This document shows, piece after piece, positions 22,547 to 41,863 of a stretch of DNA of 64,000 nt; position 1 is the first letter of the stretch; each line of letters starts with the position of its first letter. This DNA comes from a virus. The notes below the pieces were generated by a model. That model saw nothing but the letters and a program-made list of their open reading frames with translations, ran no database searches and was not told the origin of the DNA. Both the position numbers and the translations under genes were made by a program. The stretch covers positions 2,939-66,938 of IMG/VR virus record IMGVR_UViG_3300021960_000062. One strand, 5' to 3'.

Positions 22547-23560
22547 ATGGCGCTATTTAAGAAAGCGGCTTGCTTTACTGATATTCATTTCGGAATGAAA
22601 TCTGGCAGTAGGATACATAACAAAGACTGCGAAGATTTTATCGAATGGTTCATTAAAGAAGCCAAAAAAGAGAATTGTGAAACTTGTATATTTTTAGGTG
22701 ACTGGCACCATAATCGTGCGACTACTGATGTTAGCACTATGAACTACAGTGTTAGTAACTTAGAAAAACTTAACAACGCATTTGATAAAACATATCTTAT
22801 GCTTGGTAATCATGACGAGTTTTACAAAGATAAAAGAGAAATTCACAGTTTAGAATTTGCTAGACTATTTCCAAATATTGTATCTGTTAATCATCCAATA
22901 ACCGACGGAGATGTTACACTACTTCCTTGGTTAGTCGGTGAAGAATGGAAAAAAGTTAAAGATATCAAATCAAGATATATTTTTGGACACTTTGAGTTAC
23001 CATTGTTCTATATGAATGCTATGGTACAAATGCCTGATCACGGTCAACTACAAGCCAATGATTTTGTTAATCAAGAATATGTTTTCTCTGGACATTTTCA
23101 CAAGCGCCAAACCAAAGGAAATATTACATACATTGGCAATGCTTTTCCACACAACTATGCTGACGCATGGGATGATGAACGGGGCATGATGATACTCGAA
23201 TGGGGTAGTACTCCAGAGTATCGTAGTTGGTCGGATCAGCCGTTGTATAGAACATACAAACTTTCAAAACTTTTAGAAGCGCCAGACAATCTACTTAAAG
23301 AAAAGATGCACTGTCGTGTTACTATTGACGTTCCTATCAGTTTTGAAGAAGCAAACTTTATCAAAGAAACGTTCATGCCACAATATAACTTGCGTGAACT
23401 TATGCTTATTCCAGAAAAAACGGAAATTGACTCTCAAGATATTCAACCAATTGATTTAAAATTTGAAAGTGTTGATACTATTGTTGTAAATCAGATCACA
23501 AATATTGATTCCGAACAGTATGATCAAAAACTGCTATTGGAGATTTATAACGACCTATGA
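22547..23560 (+). CDS. gp47: Recombination nuclease, Mre11/SbcD-like
   Basis: Metallophosphoesterase motifs DIH, GDWHH, GNHD, GHF and GHFH. Confidence 0.93.
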   Translation: MALFKKAACFTDIHFGMKSGSRIHNKDCEDFIEWFIKEAKKENCETCIFLGDWHHNRATTDVSTMNYSVSNLEKLNNAFDKTYLMLGNHDEFYKDKREIHSLEFARLFPNIVSVNHPITDGDVTLLPWLVGEEWKKVKDIKSRYIFGHFELPLFYMNAMVQMPDHGQLQANDFVNQEYVFSGHFHKRQTKGNITYIGNAFPHNYADAWDDERGMMILEWGSTPEYRSWSDQPLYRTYKLSKLLEAPDNLLKEKMHCRVTIDVPISFEEANFIKETFMPQYNLRELMLIPEKTEIDSQDIQPIDLKFESVDTIVVNQITNIDSEQYDQKLLLEIYNDL

Positions 23561-25335
23561 TCAAAATTAAGAATCTTACAGTCCGAAACTTTATGAGTGT
23601 TGGTAATCAAACACAGGCCATTGACTTTGACAAAGGCATGTTAACACTTGTGTTAGGAGAAAACTTAGACTTAGGGGGTGACGATAGCGGTGCTAGAAAT
23701 GGTACTGGTAAGACTACGATTATTAACAGTTTAAGTTATGCTATCTACGGTGTTGCCCTTACAAATATTAAAAGAGACAATTTAATTAACAAAATTAACA
23801 GTAAAGGTATGTTAGTTACTGTTAGTTTTGAAAAGAACGGTGTTGATTATCATATTGAGCGCGGTCGTAAACCTAATATTCTTAAACTTAATGTAAACGG
23901 AGAAGAATATTCAGCAGATGATGTTGACGAAAGTCAAGGCGATAGTAGACAAACACAAAAAGAAATTGAAAAACTGTTTGGTATGAGCCATGAAATGTTT
24001 AAACATCTAGTGGCCTTAAACACATACACTGAACCTTTCTTAAGTTTGAAGTCAAACGATCAACGTGCTATCATTGAACAGTTGCTTGGTATTACAATTT
24101 TATCAGAAAAAGCAGACGCACTAAAAGAACAAATTAGAATTAGCAAAGATCTTATTCAACAAGAGAATACAAAGATCGAAACTATTAAAGTAAGCAATCA
24201 AAAAATTGAAGAATCTATTCAAAGTTTAGAAAGAAAGCAGAAGTTATGGCAGGATAATCATACTAGTGCTGTAAATGAGCTAGATCAAAGTATTACTCTA
24301 CTAGAAAAGATCGATATTGAAGCAGAAATTGACGCACACAAATGTTTAGAAAACTTCAATGAAAAGAAAAAGCGTTTAGAAGAAGCACAGCGTTGGATTG
24401 CTAATATCGAAGCAGACAATAACAAGCAAGAAAAAACTATTGCTAAACTAGACAAAGAAATTTTACTTTTAAAAGAACATAAGTGTCATGCTTGTGGACA
24501 AGAAATTCACGACACTACACAAGAAGAAATTCTAAACAGCAAACAAGAACAAAAACAAGAAGCCGCTTTACAAATTTTAACAAATAATACACAGTTTGAC
24601 GAGCATACAGCAGTTATTAACGAAATTGGAGAGCTTGAAATTTGTCCTCCTACACAATATGACAACCTAGAAGAAGCAGTTAATCATAAAAGTACACTAG
24701 CAAGTTTACATAAAGAGTTAGAAAAGAAAAAACAAGATACTAATCCTTATGAAGAACAGATTGTTGAACTTAAAGAAACAGCCCTACAAGAAATAAACTG
24801 GGATGCTGTAAACGAACTTACGAAAGTAAAAGAACATCAAGAATTCTTGTATAAACTGCTTACGAACAAAGATAGTTTTGTAAGAAAACGTATCATTGAT
24901 CAAAATTTAAGTTACCTAAATATGAGGTTAACATACTATCTAAGTAAAATTGGATTACCACACACTGTAGAATTTCAGAACGATTTAAGTGTCATTATTA
25001 CACAACTAGGACAGGACTTAGACTTTGACAATCTCAGTAGAGGTGAACGAAATAGACTCATTTTATCCATGAGTTGGGCATTCCGTGATGTTTGGGAAAG
25101 TCTATATCATAGTATTAATTTGATGTTTATCGACGAACTAGTAGACAGTGGTATGGATTCAAGTGGTGTTGAATCTAGTATTGCTGTATTAAAGAAAATG
25201 ACTAGAGAACGTGATAAAAACGTATTCCTAATTTCTCATAGAGATGATTTAGCAACTCGTGTTAATCAAGTTCTCAAAGTAATAAAGGAAAACGGATTTA
25301 CATCATATTCAAATGATGTTGAACTGGTGGAATGA
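23557..25335 (+). CDS. gp46: Recombination ATPase, Rad50/SbcC-like
   Basis: Walker A GARNGTGKT, coiled coil with CHAC zinc hook, LSRGE signature, Walker B MFIDE and ISHR H-loop. Confidence 0.95.
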   Translation: MIKIKNLTVRNFMSVGNQTQAIDFDKGMLTLVLGENLDLGGDDSGARNGTGKTTIINSLSYAIYGVALTNIKRDNLINKINSKGMLVTVSFEKNGVDYHIERGRKPNILKLNVNGEEYSADDVDESQGDSRQTQKEIEKLFGMSHEMFKHLVALNTYTEPFLSLKSNDQRAIIEQLLGITILSEKADALKEQIRISKDLIQQENTKIETIKVSNQKIEESIQSLERKQKLWQDNHTSAVNELDQSITLLEKIDIEAEIDAHKCLENFNEKKKRLEEAQRWIANIEADNNKQEKTIAKLDKEILLLKEHKCHACGQEIHDTTQEEILNSKQEQKQEAALQILTNNTQFDEHTAVINEIGELEICPPTQYDNLEEAVNHKSTLASLHKELEKKKQDTNPYEEQIVELKETALQEINWDAVNELTKVKEHQEFLYKLLTNKDSFVRKRIIDQNLSYLNMRLTYYLSKIGLPHTVEFQNDLSVIITQLGQDLDFDNLSRGERNRLILSMSWAFRDVWESLYHSINLMFIDELVDSGMDSSGVESSIAVLKKMTRERDKNVFLISHRDDLATRVNQVLKVIKENGFTSYSNDVELVE

Positions 25336-25598
25336 GTACAGAATCGCATGACAAACTTATAAGAGCATTTCAGGAATACTTTAAATGGCAAGATAAGTTT
25401 GAGTATAGTGGATCAGATGCCGCAGGCATCAAAGCACGTTATTGGCTAAGTGAAATTAGAAACTTTGCTAGCCTTAGACGAAACGAAGTACAGGCAAAAA
25501 GGCAAGATCGTAAGGCAGCCAGAAAAGGCGTAATAGGTAGACCCAAGAAAGTAAGTAATGCTGATGACGACGAATCCGGCATGGACTTACCAGAATAA
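25332..25598 (+). CDS. Small basic protein, histone H1-like (Hc1-type) putative DNA-binding protein
   Basis: FEYSGSDAAGIKARYWLSEI...RRNEVQ resembles the G.KAAG.RAR..L.EI pattern, with a basic tail. It overlaps the gp46 stop (ATGA). Confidence 0.5.
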   Translation: MSTESHDKLIRAFQEYFKWQDKFEYSGSDAAGIKARYWLSEIRNFASLRRNEVQAKRQDRKAARKGVIGRPKKVSNADDDESGMDLPE

Positions 25599-26019
25599 AC
25601 CACTAGATAGTATTCCTGAGGAATACGAAGGGTTTGTCTACCTCATCACAAACACACAGACTGGGCAAAAATACATAGGCAAAAAACTAGCCAAATTCAA
25701 AACTACCAAACCGCCACTCAAAGGCAGAAAAAACAAACGCAGAGGCACCAAAGAAAGCGATTGGAAGGACTATTGGGGTTCATCAGATCGTTTACAAGCA
25801 GATGTCGAAGCACTAGGCCCAGCAAACTTCACCCGAGAAATATTATATCTTTGTACTAACAGGGCAGAGATGTCCTACATAGAGGCAAGAGAGCAATTTG
25901 ACCGCCGTGTATTGGAAAGAGACGACTATTATAACGGAATTATTAATGTGAGAGTAGGCGGATCAGATAAATTGCGCAAGGCACTATTAGAACAACAGGC
26001 AAAGAACACTACCAAATAA
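25558..26019 (+). CDS. Free-standing compact GIY-YIG family endonuclease (Seg-like)
   Basis: GFVYLITN...KYIGKK, YWGSS, F.REIL, E..EQ and YYN motifs. No C-terminal DNA-binding repeats. An alternative start is possible at 25564. Confidence 0.8.
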   Translation: MLMTTNPAWTYQNKPLDSIPEEYEGFVYLITNTQTGQKYIGKKLAKFKTTKPPLKGRKNKRRGTKESDWKDYWGSSDRLQADVEALGPANFTREILYLCTNRAEMSYIEAREQFDRRVLERDDYYNGIINVRVGGSDKLRKALLEQQAKNTTK

Positions 26020-26023
26020 GCCC

Positions 26024-26440
26024 GCACCGGCGTAGTTATGGTGCCCGAAATCCGTTCTGATGTGTGACGGTAAGGAATGTTGATTGGTAGCAACGATTTC
26101 AGCAACTATCCTTTACAGGACGATGATCGGATATGCCTTCATAAAACCGGTTTTGCTGTCAGAACAAGATTAAAAAAGGCTAAAAGAGCGGGTAACTCCC
26201 GCAGGTTTATAGTATAAGTTAGCGTTTGTATTATAAACTGCCGTTGTACATGAGATACTAAGACGGATTGAGTAGGTATAGGATAACCGCCTACGCTATG
26301 CATTATAAAGTAAGCATTGTAGATCTAACGCTATTGTGACTGTGCGAACTCAGATGATGTTCAAAATTCATACTTTGGCCCGGCAACGGGCTAATTGTGA
26401 CCATACAATCTAGATGATGCTAAAATTGCTTCGCAATTAA
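26024..26440 (+). ncRNA. Putative large structured non-coding RNA (unassigned family)
   Basis: ORF-free stretch with many stems: GTTCTGATG 26054-62 / TGTCAGAAC 26157-65, GCGGG-taact-CCCGC, a 15-bp stem at 26205-26238 with four G-U pairs, GTAGG/CCTAC and GCCCG-GCAA-CGGGC. Confidence 0.6.
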
Positions 26441-26516
26441 TAATAAACATAAATATCAATAATAAGAAAATGTCTTTGAGCGATAGCGATAAAGACAAGT
26501 GAGCGTTAGCTCACTT
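26424..26516. other. Cluster of hairpins with GCG(N)NAGC mini-loops flanking an AT-rich tract (possible origin or primase signal, or RNA 3' end)
   Basis: AATTGCTTCGCAATT (GCGAAGC on the minus strand), TGTCTTT..GCGATAGC..AAAGACA and AAGTGAGC-GTTA-GCTCACTT. Confidence 0.45.
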
Positions 26517-26524
26517 AATAGCGT

Positions 26525-26532
26525 TATAAATA
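26525..26532 (+). promoter_or_regulatory. T4-type late promoter TATAAATA
   Basis: Exact consensus 21 nt upstream of the ATG at 26554. Confidence 0.75.
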
Positions 26533-26553
26533 TAGGAACTTAGAGATAGTAAT

Positions 26554-27780
26554 ATGAAACTGAATCAATTAGAAAACATCGATAACCTAGATGAAGCACC
26601 ACAAGGGTTTTTAAAAAGAACAGCACTTAGAGCTAGATCAGCTTTTGGTGGAGATGGAGGTGCTTCTGCTAAAGGACAACTTCAAACAGGTGAAATTGCT
26701 AATATACTTAAAAAAGAATACATGCAGTTTGTAGGTCGTACTGCTGCAGAATATGGTAATAAACCTACTACACAAACACTACTCGCTTTCCTAAACAAAA
26801 AAGGCATCGATACTAGAGAAATTGCTGGTATGATTGACAAAGAGCTACAGGCTCTTGCGCCACAAAAACAAAACCAACCACAAGCAGAACCCGAAAAAGT
26901 TGAACCAGAAGTAGGTTCAGATTCTGAACTAGACAAACTTAAACCACAAAGCCCTACAGACGATAACAATCCATTAGCTATGAATAAAAAAGACGATGTG
27001 AATATCGATGTTCCTGTAACTATGAAAAGACAAAAGACAGGTGGTAGACAAAAAGGTGGTTTAGTTAATACACCAAGTGCTATCTATCAGCGTAATCGTA
27101 GAAAAAAAACCGGCGATCAATTAGAATTATTATCAATGTACAGTGAAGAGTCACAGCGTTATAGAAAAAACTTTGAACGCATTGATTGGACACTAAAAGA
27201 AGACGCAGAATATTTTGGCGCACTTAAATTTATGGGCGTGTTTGAAGCAGTTATTCCAACAAACGTACTAGACAAAGTATTAAGCCGAATATCAGTAAAC
27301 ATTGACAAGGATGATTTAGGCGGTTTAAAACCATCACCTGAACCAATAGCACAAAAACAAGATGAGCCCGACAGTGATGACAACACTGCTCAAACTGGGA
27401 CGGATGGATCACAAGAGAAAAAAAGCGGAGGCTTTTTAAAAGGCATTGGTACAGCAATTGGCGGTATTGCTAGTAAAGCCAAAGACGGTGTTCAATCAGG
27501 AATGGGTGATAACCCAGAAGATGCAAAAGCATCAAAGATTTTTGATCCTGATGAAAAAGAAAAAACAGTTGGTAGCTTAAACTATCAGAATATTGCTAAA
27601 GAATTTCCTGGTATCGATTCTACAGCACTTAGAAGAAGCATGTCTAAAAGTTTACAAGGAAAGCAGTTGACTAGAGTAGAACATGAAACTATGTCTGCGG
27701 CAATGACCCAACTTCTTAAGAAAGATCCCCAGCAAACAGTAAAAGTAATGAATTTGTTTAAGCAAACAAAAGCGGCTTAG
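26554..27780 (+). CDS. Hypothetical late protein, possibly an internal head protein
   Basis: 408-aa ORF with its own late promoter. N-terminal NLDE/A resembles a gp21 cleavage site, and it has low-complexity charged segments. Confidence 0.6.
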   Translation: MKLNQLENIDNLDEAPQGFLKRTALRARSAFGGDGGASAKGQLQTGEIANILKKEYMQFVGRTAAEYGNKPTTQTLLAFLNKKGIDTREIAGMIDKELQALAPQKQNQPQAEPEKVEPEVGSDSELDKLKPQSPTDDNNPLAMNKKDDVNIDVPVTMKRQKTGGRQKGGLVNTPSAIYQRNRRKKTGDQLELLSMYSEESQRYRKNFERIDWTLKEDAEYFGALKFMGVFEAVIPTNVLDKVLSRISVNIDKDDLGGLKPSPEPIAQKQDEPDSDDNTAQTGTDGSQEKKSGGFLKGIGTAIGGIASKAKDGVQSGMGDNPEDAKASKIFDPDEKEKTVGSLNYQNIAKEFPGIDSTALRRSMSKSLQGKQLTRVEHETMSAAMTQLLKKDPQQTVKVMNLFKQTKAA

Positions 27781-39776: not shown

Positions 39777-40949
39777 ATGTCAGAACTACTCGAGTCACGC
39801 TGGCAGGAAACCAAAGGCGCTCTATTAGAAGGCCTTGATGGAACTCGCAAATCGGTTATGGCTACTACTCTTGAAAATACTAGAAAGTATTTGTCAGAGA
39901 GTGCTACAGCTGGTGCTACTTCTGCCGGTAACGTTGCTACCCTAAATCGTGTGATCCTACCTGTGATCAGACGTGTAATGCCAACAGTCATTGCTAATGA
40001 ACTTGTTGGTGTACAACCAATGACAGGTCCAGTTGGACAAATCCACACCCTACGTGTACGCTATGCGTCCACAGATACTGGTGCTGGTGTAACAGCTGGT
40101 GAAGAGGCTCTAAGCCCATTCAAGATTGCTGCAGCCTATTCAGGTAACTCAGCTGATCCAGCAAAAGGTGGATCAACTGCTACACTTGAAGGTGAGCCAG
40201 GCAACAAAATGTCAATCCAAATCTTGAAGCAAACTGTAGAAGCAAAAACCAGAAAGCTATCAGCTCGCTGGACTTTTGAAGCTGCACAAGATGCTCAAGC
40301 ACAACAAGGCATTGACATTGAAGCTGAAATCATGGCTGCACTAGCGCAAGAAATTACTGCTGAAATTGATCAGGAAGTAATTAACTCGCTACGTGATCTT
40401 GCTGGTACAGGTTCAGAGACTTATGACCAGTCAGCGGTATCAGGTACTGCTACATTTGTTGGTGATGAACATGCTGCATTAGCTGTTTTAATCAACAGAC
40501 AAGCAAACCTAATCGCTCAGCGTACAAGAAGAGGCGCTGGTAACTACGCTGTAGTTTCACCATTCGCTTTAACAATTCTTCAAAGTGCTACAACTTCTGC
40601 GTTCGCAAGAACAACAGAAGGTACATTCGAAGCTCCAACTAACACTAAGATGGTTGGTACTTTGAACAACGCTATGAAGGTATATGTTGATTCATACGCT
40701 GCAAATAACGCACCTGTTCTTATTGGTTACAAAGGATCAAGTGAGTCAGACGCACCTGCGTTCTACTGCCCATACATTCCATTAATGAGCAGTGGCGTTG
40801 TGCTAGATCCAGGCACATTTGAGCCTGTAGTAAGCTTCATGACTAGATACGGATATGTTGAGTTAACAAACACAGCATCGTCTCTAGGTAATGCTGCAGA
40901 CTACTTGGCACGTGTTGAGATCACAGACTCAAGCGTTTCATTCAAGTAA
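39777..40949 (+). CDS. gp23: Major capsid protein
   Basis: RRVMPTVIANELVGVQPMTGPVGQI, VEAKTRKLSARWTFEAAQD and FYCPYIPL...FEP...FMTRYG. Confidence 0.97.
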   Translation: MSELLESRWQETKGALLEGLDGTRKSVMATTLENTRKYLSESATAGATSAGNVATLNRVILPVIRRVMPTVIANELVGVQPMTGPVGQIHTLRVRYASTDTGAGVTAGEEALSPFKIAAAYSGNSADPAKGGSTATLEGEPGNKMSIQILKQTVEAKTRKLSARWTFEAAQDAQAQQGIDIEAEIMAALAQEITAEIDQEVINSLRDLAGTGSETYDQSAVSGTATFVGDEHAALAVLINRQANLIAQRTRRGAGNYAVVSPFALTILQSATTSAFARTTEGTFEAPTNTKMVGTLNNAMKVYVDSYAANNAPVLIGYKGSSESDAPAFYCPYIPLMSSGVVLDPGTFEPVVSFMTRYGYVELTNTASSLGNAADYLARVEITDSSVSFK

Positions 40950-41035: not shown

Positions 41036-41308
41036 ATGCTAGAAATTAAAACATGGGAAGATTTTCAAAAACTAAGAGAGCAGTTTTCCACTTGGCGTAA
41101 ACGGCATCCAATGTTTTCCCATGATGTTAGAGCTATAGAAAAAACTATAGAAGTACATATGAAATCTCATATGGACTATATCATTAAATATAAACAATCA
41201 AGAAAAGAACAAAATCTAGTAAACGCTCAACAAGAACTAGATGAAATTAACAGAATACTCAATACTGTAAGTAAAGCAGAATTAATGGCAATTCTTTCGC
41301 AAGGATAA
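41036..41308 (+). CDS. Small helical hypothetical protein
   Basis: 90-aa ORF filling the space between the terminator and the next late promoter. Confidence 0.65.
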   Translation: MLEIKTWEDFQKLREQFSTWRKRHPMFSHDVRAIEKTIEVHMKSHMDYIIKYKQSRKEQNLVNAQQELDEINRILNTVSKAELMAILSQG

Positions 41309-41403
41309 ATACTTGTGTCAGATAGTGTGCTACTTGTAGTAGACTTATGGGGAATACCAACCTCGTAGCGGCTAGAACCCGCATCGGACTTCTAACTTAG
41401 GAG
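41306..41403 (+). promoter_or_regulatory. Late promoter TAAATA plus structured 5' leader (four-way junction with pseudoknot)
   Basis: Closing stem GTCaGAT/ATCgGAC with three internal hairpins. Loop TAGAA is complementary to TTCTA just before SD AGGAG. Confidence 0.6.
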
Positions 41404-41410
41404 AAAAAAA

Positions 41411-41863
41411 ATGGGAAGACCACTCAATAAAAAACTTTTTGGACCACCAACAGCAGGTGGAAACGAACTCAAGTGTGATTTTTATGACGGCGTTTCAGCT
41501 GTTCTAGAAGGTTACATTGTAAAACAGCTAGGATCAAAAAAATTCCGCGTTGCTGCAATTGGCACACCAGCTACTACATACGATCGTTTCTTGACAACAG
41601 GTAAATTAGCATCAGCACTAACAGGTACTGAAATGGCAATTACTATGTTAATGGATGATTCAGAAACTTATCAAGTTTCAAAAATTACTGGACGTAGAGC
41701 TACTCTAGTTGCTCCAGATGGTACTGGAACAAATGCGTATGACGGAAAATCAGTTCCATGGAACTTTACAGTATCGACATCAGACGGTGCGGCACAAGCT
41801 GAAGAAGCTGGTGACGACGATGTACTAATTGGTACTGACGATGACGATTTCGTTAATGCGTAA
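41411..41863 (+). CDS. Putative virion structural protein
   Basis: 150-aa ORF with a strong SD and a late promoter, in the structural cluster. Confidence 0.7.
   Translation: MGRPLNKKLFGPPTAGGNELKCDFYDGVSAVLEGYIVKQLGSKKFRVAAIGTPATTYDRFLTTGKLASALTGTEMAITMLMDDSETYQVSKITGRRATLVAPDGTGTNAYDGKSVPWNFTVSTSDGAAQAEEAGDDDVLIGTDDDDFVNA

Follow-up and report, generated by a model that had tools for sequence, protein, structure and literature searches.

Positions ~25997-26515 (plus strand) of a 64-kb fragment of an uncultured T4-like phage encode one real, doubly pseudoknotted noncoding RNA (ncRNA) of about 500 nucleotides (nt). Only the 5' third of this RNA is covered by a catalogued motif, Polynucleobacter-1 (Rfam RF01718), and the remainder is uncatalogued. 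The fragment, referred to here as the window, is part of a 66.9-kb IMG/VR record (IMGVR_UViG_3300021960_000062, CheckV completeness 19). The RNA lies directly behind a gene for a GIY-YIG nuclease of 153 amino acids (aa), and a model that had seen only the letters and their open reading frames (ORFs) had suggested a nuclease-RNA system at this place (the original prediction). We found that the tie between the RNA and the nuclease is strong by position and not obligatory. We propose, with about as much reason to believe as to doubt it, that the RNA is a trans-acting scaffold that shows one short word twice to an outside reader. New in this analysis are the helix and pseudoknot coordinates in the window, an AGGC lead-in ahead of the known motif, the replacement of the GIY-YIG gene by a PD-(D/E)XK nuclease gene in some loci, and negative covariation tests against five neighboring proteins.

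A doubly pseudoknotted RNA of about 500 nt

A cmscan search matched the complete RF01718 model (positions 1-141 of 141, not truncated) to 26019-26161 (+) with 73.5 bits (gathering threshold 37, E = 1.1e-13). The original prediction had missed this match, while its statement that no group I/II intron, tmRNA or tRNA signature is recognizable agrees with the Rfam scan and with ARAGORN, which found neither tRNA nor tmRNA in the window. The only other Rfam families returned for 25900-26650 at E values up to 10 were snoZ159 (E = 2.3) and CLRN1-AS1 (E = 9.6), both chance matches. A group I/II intron carrying an endonuclease ORF was also rejected, as no intron covariance model matched and the flanking ORFs are complete genes. 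Table 1 of Weinberg et al. 2010 (Genome Biol 11:R31, PMC2864571) marks the motif as an RNA ("y") and as cis-regulatory ("y"), enters "?" for a switch, and assigns it to Burkholderiales and to fresh water/estuary; in the literature searched, the term "Polynucleobacter-1" was found only in this naming paper. The habitat given there fits the salt-marsh and estuary labels of the metatranscriptome runs that hold relatives of the RNA.

To define the extent of the RNA, a 15-base pattern was taken from the conserved core, which retrieved 119 viral contigs and at least 120 bacterial or archaeal contigs, and a model built from three instances (R1) was used to find the 5' domain in these pattern-bearing contigs. 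R1 detected it in 80 of the 119 viral contigs. Among the bacterial or archaeal matches listed (at least 120) there was no credible R1 hit, with a pattern narrow enough to leave room for bacterial copies; two hits in genome contigs were judged false, one of 23 bits inside a coding ORF (L219) and one of 12.8 bits with an E value of 0.38 (L222). About 380 nt behind the RF01718 motif are conserved in blocks across 68 loci, and conservation runs through the whole 0.5 kb. Because the conserved block starts about 22 nt before the Rfam start and ends at the terminal hairpin P15, the RNA is about 500 nt long and overlaps the last codons of the GIY-YIG gene (GIY). The original prediction had given the element ~420 nt and overlooked the 3' part that reaches ~26515. 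In 48 of 77 loci, AGGC marks the lead-in at -19 to -22 relative to the RF01718 start, and it is also found behind genes other than GIY (L097, L139, L102, L188 and L163). Across loci, the 5' domain starts at or before the stop codon of the last ORF, or 0-77 nt behind it.

The structure was derived from a MAFFT alignment of 61 non-redundant phage loci (A4), for which RNAalifold gave 58 pairs, 43 of them with compensatory changes; pseudoknots were added through an all-against-all stack scan and direct pair counts. The full structure has 94 pairs in 22 helices and includes two pseudoknots, PK1 and PK2 (Table 1). Paired cells amount to 85.2%, compared with 70.6% in shuffled alignments (reached by 0 of 500 shuffles), and the covariation score is 0.411 versus 0.166 after shuffling and 0.076-0.102 with slid partners. 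Both sides have changed in 81 of the 94 pairs, against 62.5 in the shuffles. Each position of PK1 pairs in 54-61 of the 61 rows, with exchanges such as CG49/TA11, GC45/AT12 and GC52/AT7, and the pairs of PK2 occur as UA34/CG27 and GC33/AU22/GU6. Similar exchanges are found at the 3' end, for example GC24/AU23/UA6 in P15. In P14, the inner GC/GC pairs are 98% paired, and the outer stem is 55% paired with 7/7 pairs changed on both sides. Thus the conserved, covarying structure that an alignment of the downstream region was expected to reveal is present.

That this structure belongs to the plus strand, as originally proposed, is borne out by its frequent G-U pairs (GU in 61/61 rows at alignment columns 140/172 and in 37 rows at columns 403/570) and by its folding energy, with a minimum free energy of -145.2 kcal/mol and a z-score of -3.55 on the plus strand compared with -1.55 on the minus strand. 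Several of the stems initially drawn by eye were also confirmed: GCACC/GGTGC (P1), TCCT/AGGA (P5), GATCGG/CCGGTT (P6), the long G-U-rich stem at 26205-38 (P8), GTAGG/CCTAC (P11) and the GCAA hairpin (P12) are backed by covariation or by the Rfam model. The stem GCGGG/CCCGC (P7) is present, but on the MAFFT alignment no more than 50-66% of its cells pair. Three others have to be redrawn. In L002, just one strand of the long-range stem GTTCTGATG/TGTCAGAAC has changed, while the local Rfam hairpin P2 has compensatory changes; instead of TGTTGA/TCAGCA, the covarying pairs are GTTG/CAAC and CAGCA/TGCTG; and the proposed CCGT/ACGG stem is superseded by PK2, in which GTTGT pairs with ATAAC. Two possible partners of the P6 loop (UGCCUU), AGGCA upstream and AAGGC in the linker, were considered and set aside; both fit, and neither beats swapped controls, the motifs being conserved.

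The known motif and the RNA described here are therefore related in a specific manner. The whole 141-position model is matched and its helices covary in the phage loci, but the catalogued motif ends after 141 nt, whereas here it forms the first third of a much longer molecule with two pseudoknots and twin boxes. Moreover, credible instances were found here only in viral contigs (80/119 versus 0 of at least 120 genome contigs), and marine relatives carry the 3' part with another 5' domain.

Twin boxes and distribution of the 3' domain

The 3' domain contains the word AGATGAT twice (boxes A and B). Each copy is part of a unit of the form GTGAC-N7-9-TC(T)-word, and the two units flank the GNRA hairpin P12. 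The boxes are identical to each other in 59 of the 61 rows despite there being 12 different words, and box A and box B share mutual information as high as their entropy. All other RNA columns stay at or below 0.51 bits, so the boxes have no complementary partner within the RNA. The original prediction had called for a search for a variable guide segment, and these two 7-nt boxes are the only variable words that we found. Two or three letters ahead of TC(T) often agree between the two units too (GAC/GAT, CAC/CAT, GAGC/GAGT), and to judge from these letters the twin word may extend beyond 7 nt; in the window, 26346-26351 and 26405-26411 have only AA in common ahead of the boxes. Two other explanations of the units were tried and rejected. 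A helix between the spacers of units A and B is unconvincing (a mean of 4.08 bp within the same RNA versus 3.75 for swapped pairs), and the 11-13 nt between GTGAC and the box are too short for sigma-70 promoters.

The RF01718-type 5' domain occurs in only 3 of the 80 loci closest to the window by their GIY gene (L002-L081, all selected through the GIY gene itself), but ~30 of them have twin-box or tail blocks at the expected offset. Nine marine loci with no hit were read by eye, and all nine combine this 3' architecture with a different 5' domain and have ACATGAA as their boxes. Neither the window RNA nor a marine-type RNA (L012) had a blastn match in 50,697 GenBank phage records, compared with 763 phage records that hold the GIY protein family. 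The only cultured relative of the GIY protein (66% identity) is in phage Melnitz. A search of its whole 141.5-kb genome with R1 found no RF01718-type RNA, and the stretch behind its gp46, searched for the 3' domain, has no gap and no twin or tail hidden Markov model hit.

The neighboring nuclease, expression and the surrounding locus

The 153-aa protein is, by profile, a GIY-YIG protein as predicted. It matches the Pfam SegE_GIY-YIG model PF19835 with 121.1 bits (cut-off 25, E = 4.3e-35), residues 9-129 aligning to profile positions 1-123 of 123, and phrog_447 (E = 1.2e-39). Since the PF19835 match spans the full profile, the basic stretch in this protein is part of the family and not the extra insertion it had been taken for. 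In the AlphaFold2 model (predicted local distance difference test score 83.4), this stretch (residues 52-60) is the tip of a beta hairpin formed by strands 46-51 and 61-66, and the C-terminus is a single helix (residues 137-151). The I-TevI catalytic domain (1ln0_A, probability 0.97, E = 0.077, template-modeling score 0.61 by target length) gives the best, though weak, fold match in the PDB, and next come a restriction enzyme of the GIY-YIG type and the N-terminal domain of UvrC; PDB sequence searches gave no hit with the protein and a best E value of 0.36 with its profile. Residues Y28, Y39-G41, E109, E112 and N126 are invariant in 25/25 aligned relatives, and Y28, Y39, E109/E112 and N126 are the presumed catalytic Tyr, Tyr, Glu and Asn. 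The canonical arginine that follows the YIG motif was not located in this protein.

Only the catalytic-domain model matches, in line with the expectation that a C-terminal DNA-recognition module is lacking. The protein resembles the T4 Seg-type homing endonucleases in its full-length match to the SegE GIY-YIG domain, and I-TevI in that the I-TevI catalytic domain is the closest to its predicted model. It differs from both in having no C-terminal DNA-binding domain, in its fixed slot behind gp47-gp46, in being better conserved than most of its neighbors, and in not residing within an intron (no intron model match). Across the 80 GIY loci, the protein is 77-98% identical, compared with mostly 50-76% or mostly 50-94% for gp46 and gp47. 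With few exceptions its gene follows gp47-gp46 in an unchanged order, all these loci having been chosen through this gene. Because the gene has a fixed place and is well conserved, a roaming homing endonuclease is a poor fit, and we rejected a free-standing Seg-type enzyme, as no DNA-binding domain is joined and its presence is not sporadic. In Melnitz, where GIY is located behind nrdB, gp46 is just 26% identical. These identities suggest that the nuclease gene is under strong constraint or has been transferred horizontally.

We then examined what lies upstream of the RNA in 80 instances (79 loci and the window). A GIY homolog ends less than 200 nt upstream in 68 of them, and in seven more GIY is further upstream with another ORF in between. 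Two instances (L097:3963-4484 and L139:8819-9385) have instead a 173-188-aa "phage putative PDDEXK endonuclease" (PF24608, E = 2.5e-29 and 5.6e-30, phrog_244), which replaces GIY between orf88 and the RNA and ends 9 and 19 nt before the RNA. No recognized nuclease is upstream in two (L125, L188), and in one the RNA is too close to the contig start to judge (L121). The intervening ORFs of 257-283 aa are of two kinds (L148:1262-2113, L095, L151 and L163; L102:6141-6959 and L184), without a significant Pfam hit and, for the two checked (L148, L102), without a PHROG hit. One kind, starting MKLVFAGCSFTAGHGW, presumably resembles an SGNH hydrolase. In L187, a 72-aa PF12843 ORF stands between GIY and the RNA. 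The order gp47-gp46-(orf88)-GIY-RNA, followed by minus-strand baseplate genes, is found in nearly all instances, and since they occupy one syntenic slot the linkage may largely reflect shared descent. The small nuclease thus appears to be a frequent neighbor and not an obligatory partner. What still speaks most strongly for a functional tie is the swap to an unrelated nuclease at the same slot, and on this ground a weaker tie may exist.

Sampled words of the region 25000-27000 are present at 5-21% in 18 metatranscriptome runs. In four of these runs, contigs of relatives that are 90-99% alike extend from the 3' part of GIY into the RNA (X1-X4 in Table 1), leaving 26474-27000 uncovered, a gap that carries no evidential weight. 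These contigs are weakly consistent with co-transcription of GIY and the RNA. A scan of 25300-26700 for promoters and terminators was uninformative (four promoter-like sites versus 3.2 expected; two terminator-like sites, both on the minus strand, versus 1.3 expected).

Table 1. Coordinates of the RNA, its helices and boxes, the neighboring genes and the RNA-library contigs in the window
Feature	Position	Strand	Basis or remark
Lead-in with AGGC(A), likely 5' extension of the RNA, in the last GIY codons	25997..26018	+	conserved in loci
5' domain, RF01718	26019..26161	+	cmscan
P1	26024-28/26040-44	+	98% paired, 5/5 pairs compensatory
P2	26052-57/26064-70	+	63-64% paired on MAFFT alignment; compensatory changes among window, L002, L018
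P3	26079-82/26091-94	+	63-64% paired on MAFFT alignment; compensatory changes among window, L002, L018
P4	26100-04/26154-58	+	86% paired, 5/5 compensatory
P5 (TCCT/AGGA)	26109-12/26117-20	+	invariant
P6 (GATCGG/CCGGTT)	26125-30/26147-52	+	92% paired; compensatory changes among window, L002, L018
Conserved linker AAGGCTAAAAGAG, then variable hairpin P7	26176..26202	+	conservation profile, 68 loci
P7 (GCGGG/CCCGC)	26188-92/26198-202	+	see text
P8, long hairpin (26205-09/26234-38, 26212-17/26226-31)	26205..26238	+	92-94% paired, 11/11 pairs changed on both sides
PK1, P8 loop 26220-25 (TAGCGT) with 26328-33 (ACGCTA)	26220..26333	+	95.7% paired, 5/5 counted pairs compensatory
PK2, 26243-47 (GTTGT) with 26283-87 (ATAAC, P11 loop)	26243..26287	+	99.0% paired, stack scan
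P10, long-range helix (26265-69/26322-26)	26265..26326	+	93% paired, 5/5 compensatory (GC30/CG15/UA9/AU5)
P11 (GTAGG/CCTAC), enclosed by P10	26272-76/26290-94	+	97% paired
Variable insertion hairpin, enclosed by P10	26295-26319	+	length differs among loci
Twin box A (AGATGAT), GTGAC-N9-TC ahead	26352..26358	+	= box B in 59/61 rows
P12, GCAA-loop hairpin between the boxes	26375..26394	+	87% paired, 5/8 compensatory
Twin box B (AGATGAT), GTGAC-N7-TCT ahead	26412..26418	+	= box A in 59/61 rows
P13, small hairpin (AATTG/CAATT)	26424..26438	+	sequence; weak, 57-92% paired on gappy MAFFT alignment
AT-rich variable linker	26440-26470	+	behind P13
P14 (26471-77/26491-97) around conserved GA-GC-GATA-GC-GA (26478-89)	26471..26497	+	61-row alignment
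P15, terminal hairpin (AGTGAGC-GTTA-GCTCACT), likely 3' end of the RNA	26498..26515	+	99.2% paired, 7/7 compensatory
gp47-like (SbcD-type) nuclease subunit gene	22547..23560	+	Pfam Metallophos, phrog_100; synteny in related loci
gp46-like (SbcC/Rad50-type) ATPase gene	23557..25335	+	PF13476, phrog_77 (E = 3e-104)
orf88, small basic protein without known family, overlapping the GIY start	25332..25598	+	ORF list; syntenic in most related loci
GIY-YIG nuclease gene, 153 aa	25558..26019	+	PF19835, phrog_447
TATAAATA	26525..26532	+	sequence; 21 nt ahead of orf408 ATG
orf408, 408 aa	26554-27780	+	ORF list
X1 contig	25862-26448		586 nt
X2 contigs	up to 26438		two pieces
X3 contig	25863-26345		482 nt
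X4 contig	25958-26349		

The locus consists of a plus-strand row of gp47, gp46, orf88 and GIY, followed by the ORF-free stretch 26020-26553, orf408 and, further on, minus-strand baseplate genes. The identity of the gp46/47 recombination genes, anticipated by the original prediction, is supported by Pfam and PHROG matches, and its description of the only long noncoding stretch of the window also holds, 26020-26553 (534 nt) being the sole stretch of at least 150 nt in the 64 kb without an ORF of at least 80 aa. Neither orf88 nor orf408 matches anything in Pfam, PHROG or NCBIfam. The word TATAAATA ahead of orf408, which matches the T4 late-promoter consensus, belongs to this next gene and not to the RNA, and it recurs in just 7 of the 79 other instances scanned. 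Only the first ~82-87 residues of orf408 are kept in most related loci (34-45% identity), and orf408 looks like a fast-evolving late gene in a variable region separating the RNA from the baseplate genes. Among the 80 GIY-selected contigs, 26 end within 500 nt behind GIY, inside the RNA, and just 3 within 500 nt upstream of it. This looks like an assembly break point, for which variation in the insertions and linkers of the RNA, and in the genes that follow it, is the probable cause. Elsewhere in the window, a second Rfam RNA, RF02980 (freshwater-2), matches at 41326-41413 (+) with 69.3 bits (cut-off 49.9), in a 102-nt gap between a 90-aa ORF (41036-41308) and a 150-aa ORF (41411-41863), neither with a Pfam hit, a short way past the gene for the major capsid protein gp23 (39777-40949, PF07068).

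Possible roles of the RNA

Since the RNA starts within the last codons of the upstream gene, leaving a gap with no room for a promoter, it is most likely produced as the 3' end of the preceding gene's transcript, and it may possibly be trimmed afterwards. It would then act in trans as a rigid scaffold that displays the same short single-stranded word twice to a reader outside the RNA. This reader might be a partner present in two copies or a dimer, and either a protein or a nucleic acid. In a more specific form of this proposal, which we hold to be improbable, the twin boxes are a programmable two-site reader that grips two copies of a matching nucleic acid, or they bind a co-evolving dimeric protein. 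The targets could be host or phage RNA, or single-stranded DNA arising from the neighboring recombination and nuclease genes, and every phage lineage would retune both words jointly.

It should be noted that a number of observations weigh against the scaffold proposal. Elsewhere in the loci there is no enrichment of the box word (59 copies in forward orientation versus ~68 expected) or of its reverse complement (47 versus ~34 expected), and neither is placed consistently in the loci or in the window; within the window there are 12 forward copies versus 7.6 expected and nine reverse-complement copies versus 6.1, which we do not count as enrichment. None of GIY, gp46, gp47, orf89 and the baseplate protein shows outlier covariation with the box letters relative to 89-125 control RNA columns, in tests of low power. 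For GIY, the normalized mutual information is 0.29-0.54, with a control mean of 0.40-0.42 and a control maximum of 0.68-0.75, and for orf88 the full-length copies are too few (20). Part of the structure came from the very alignment used for counting its pairs, which favors it over the slid controls, and as most instances are in one syntenic slot the rows are not independent and significance is overstated by the shuffle control. Inner P2, P3, P7, P13 and outer P14 pair in just 50-75% of cells on the MAFFT alignment. From the RNA-library contigs neither the strand nor the ends of a transcript can be read, and as these libraries may contain DNA the contigs do not prove transcription. Finally, the proposal leaves unexplained the close adjacency to a small nuclease (the 68 GIY instances and the two with a different nuclease).

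The RNA could alternatively work in cis, as a terminator, exonuclease block or processing site of the gp47-gp46-GIY transcript, or in the control of a flanking gene, which we regard as rather unlikely. In every case it comes straight after the last plus-strand ORF, whichever ORF that is, it overlaps the stop codon, it ends in the stable covarying hairpin P15, it is joined to the ORF in RNA-library contigs, and its 5' motif is listed as a likely cis-regulatory RNA in the table of Weinberg et al. 2010 (PMC2864571). However, 22 helices, two pseudoknots and co-changing boxes far exceed the needs of a terminator or stabilizer, no T run follows P15 in the window, and the downstream genes vary in identity, strand and distance, which does not suit a 5' leader. 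The adjacency that the scaffold leaves unexplained would be accounted for if the RNA bound the small nuclease encoded upstream, GIY-YIG or PD-(D/E)XK, and scaffolded, targeted or regulated it. The unrelated PF24608 gene in the same position resembles a conserved nuclease slot, and the high identity of GIY compared with gp46 and gp47 also speaks for this explanation. We nevertheless consider it unlikely, given the seven loci with an ORF between GIY and the RNA, the two without a recognized nuclease upstream, the presence in Melnitz of a 66%-identical GIY homolog without an RF01718-type RNA, the many phage records with the protein family compared with the lack of blastn matches to the RNA, and the fact that no GIY column tracks the box letters beyond controls. 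The 7-nt boxes are also too short and too constrained (RSAURAW) to serve as a guide. The original suggestion of an RNA that scaffolds or guides the GIY-YIG nuclease thus found no support in any test run, whether from nuclease swaps, intervening ORFs, Melnitz or covariation.

That suggestion was modeled on OMEGA/HEARO systems (IscB and TnpB with omega RNA), in which a nuclease gene likewise stands beside a long structured RNA. Here, however, the nuclease is of the GIY-YIG and not the RuvC/HNH type, there are two constrained 7-nt boxes where a long variable guide would be expected, the RNA is kept in loci in which another nuclease has taken over or the nuclease gene lies further off, and no HEARO/OMEGA model matched 25900-26650 at E values up to 10; we therefore rejected membership in this group. 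The RNA can also be compared with GOLLD (RF01998) and ROOL (RF03087), the large ornate RNAs known from phages and prophages, which are likewise large, intricately folded, phage-borne ncRNAs that lack a known function and were found by comparative genomics. They have no sequence or structure match to the present RNA in the Rfam scans; the present RNA is smaller and has a fixed slot behind a nuclease gene and twin identical boxes. GOLLD and ROOL are described as forming RNA-only complexes (bioRxiv 10.1101/2024.12.08.627333), and by its size, ornate fold and phage origin the present RNA might similarly form a symmetric multimer, with the twin boxes making contacts between molecules or with cargo. 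This is very unlikely, as no RNA column is both complementary to and covarying with the boxes, the boxes are not self-complementary, and neither family is matched. Least of all do we favor an element acting at the DNA level, a replication origin or recombination site next to gp46/47 with the boxes as iterons or with an R-loop primer. The two direct repeats ~60 bp apart that change in step are iteron-like and the recombination genes adjoin, but compensatory changes preserve G-U pairs, which the opposite strand would have as A-C mismatches, the pseudoknots covary, the plus strand has a better fold z-score than the minus strand, and the 5' domain matches a structure-based RNA model, all of which makes this explanation extremely unlikely; an R-loop primer processed by the nuclease, as originally put forward, was likewise unsupported in any test run.

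Large, intricately folded ncRNAs are rare, and RNase P, group I/II introns, OLE, GOLLD, ROOL and HEARO have each opened new biochemistry. Our findings turn an orphan motif catalogued in 2010 into the front end of a doubly knotted RNA of ~500 nt that is common in uncultured aquatic T4-like phages, where it has a fixed place by recombination and nuclease genes. For annotation, the RNA accounts for the sole long gene-free gap in such phage genomes, and it may also account for the many contigs that break shortly behind the GIY gene. The boxes, identical within an RNA yet varying between lineages, are an unusual kind of evidence for an outside reader and provide a direct experimental handle on it. 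If the boxes do act as a two-site reader, this would be a mode of action that has not been described for any large bacterial or phage RNA.

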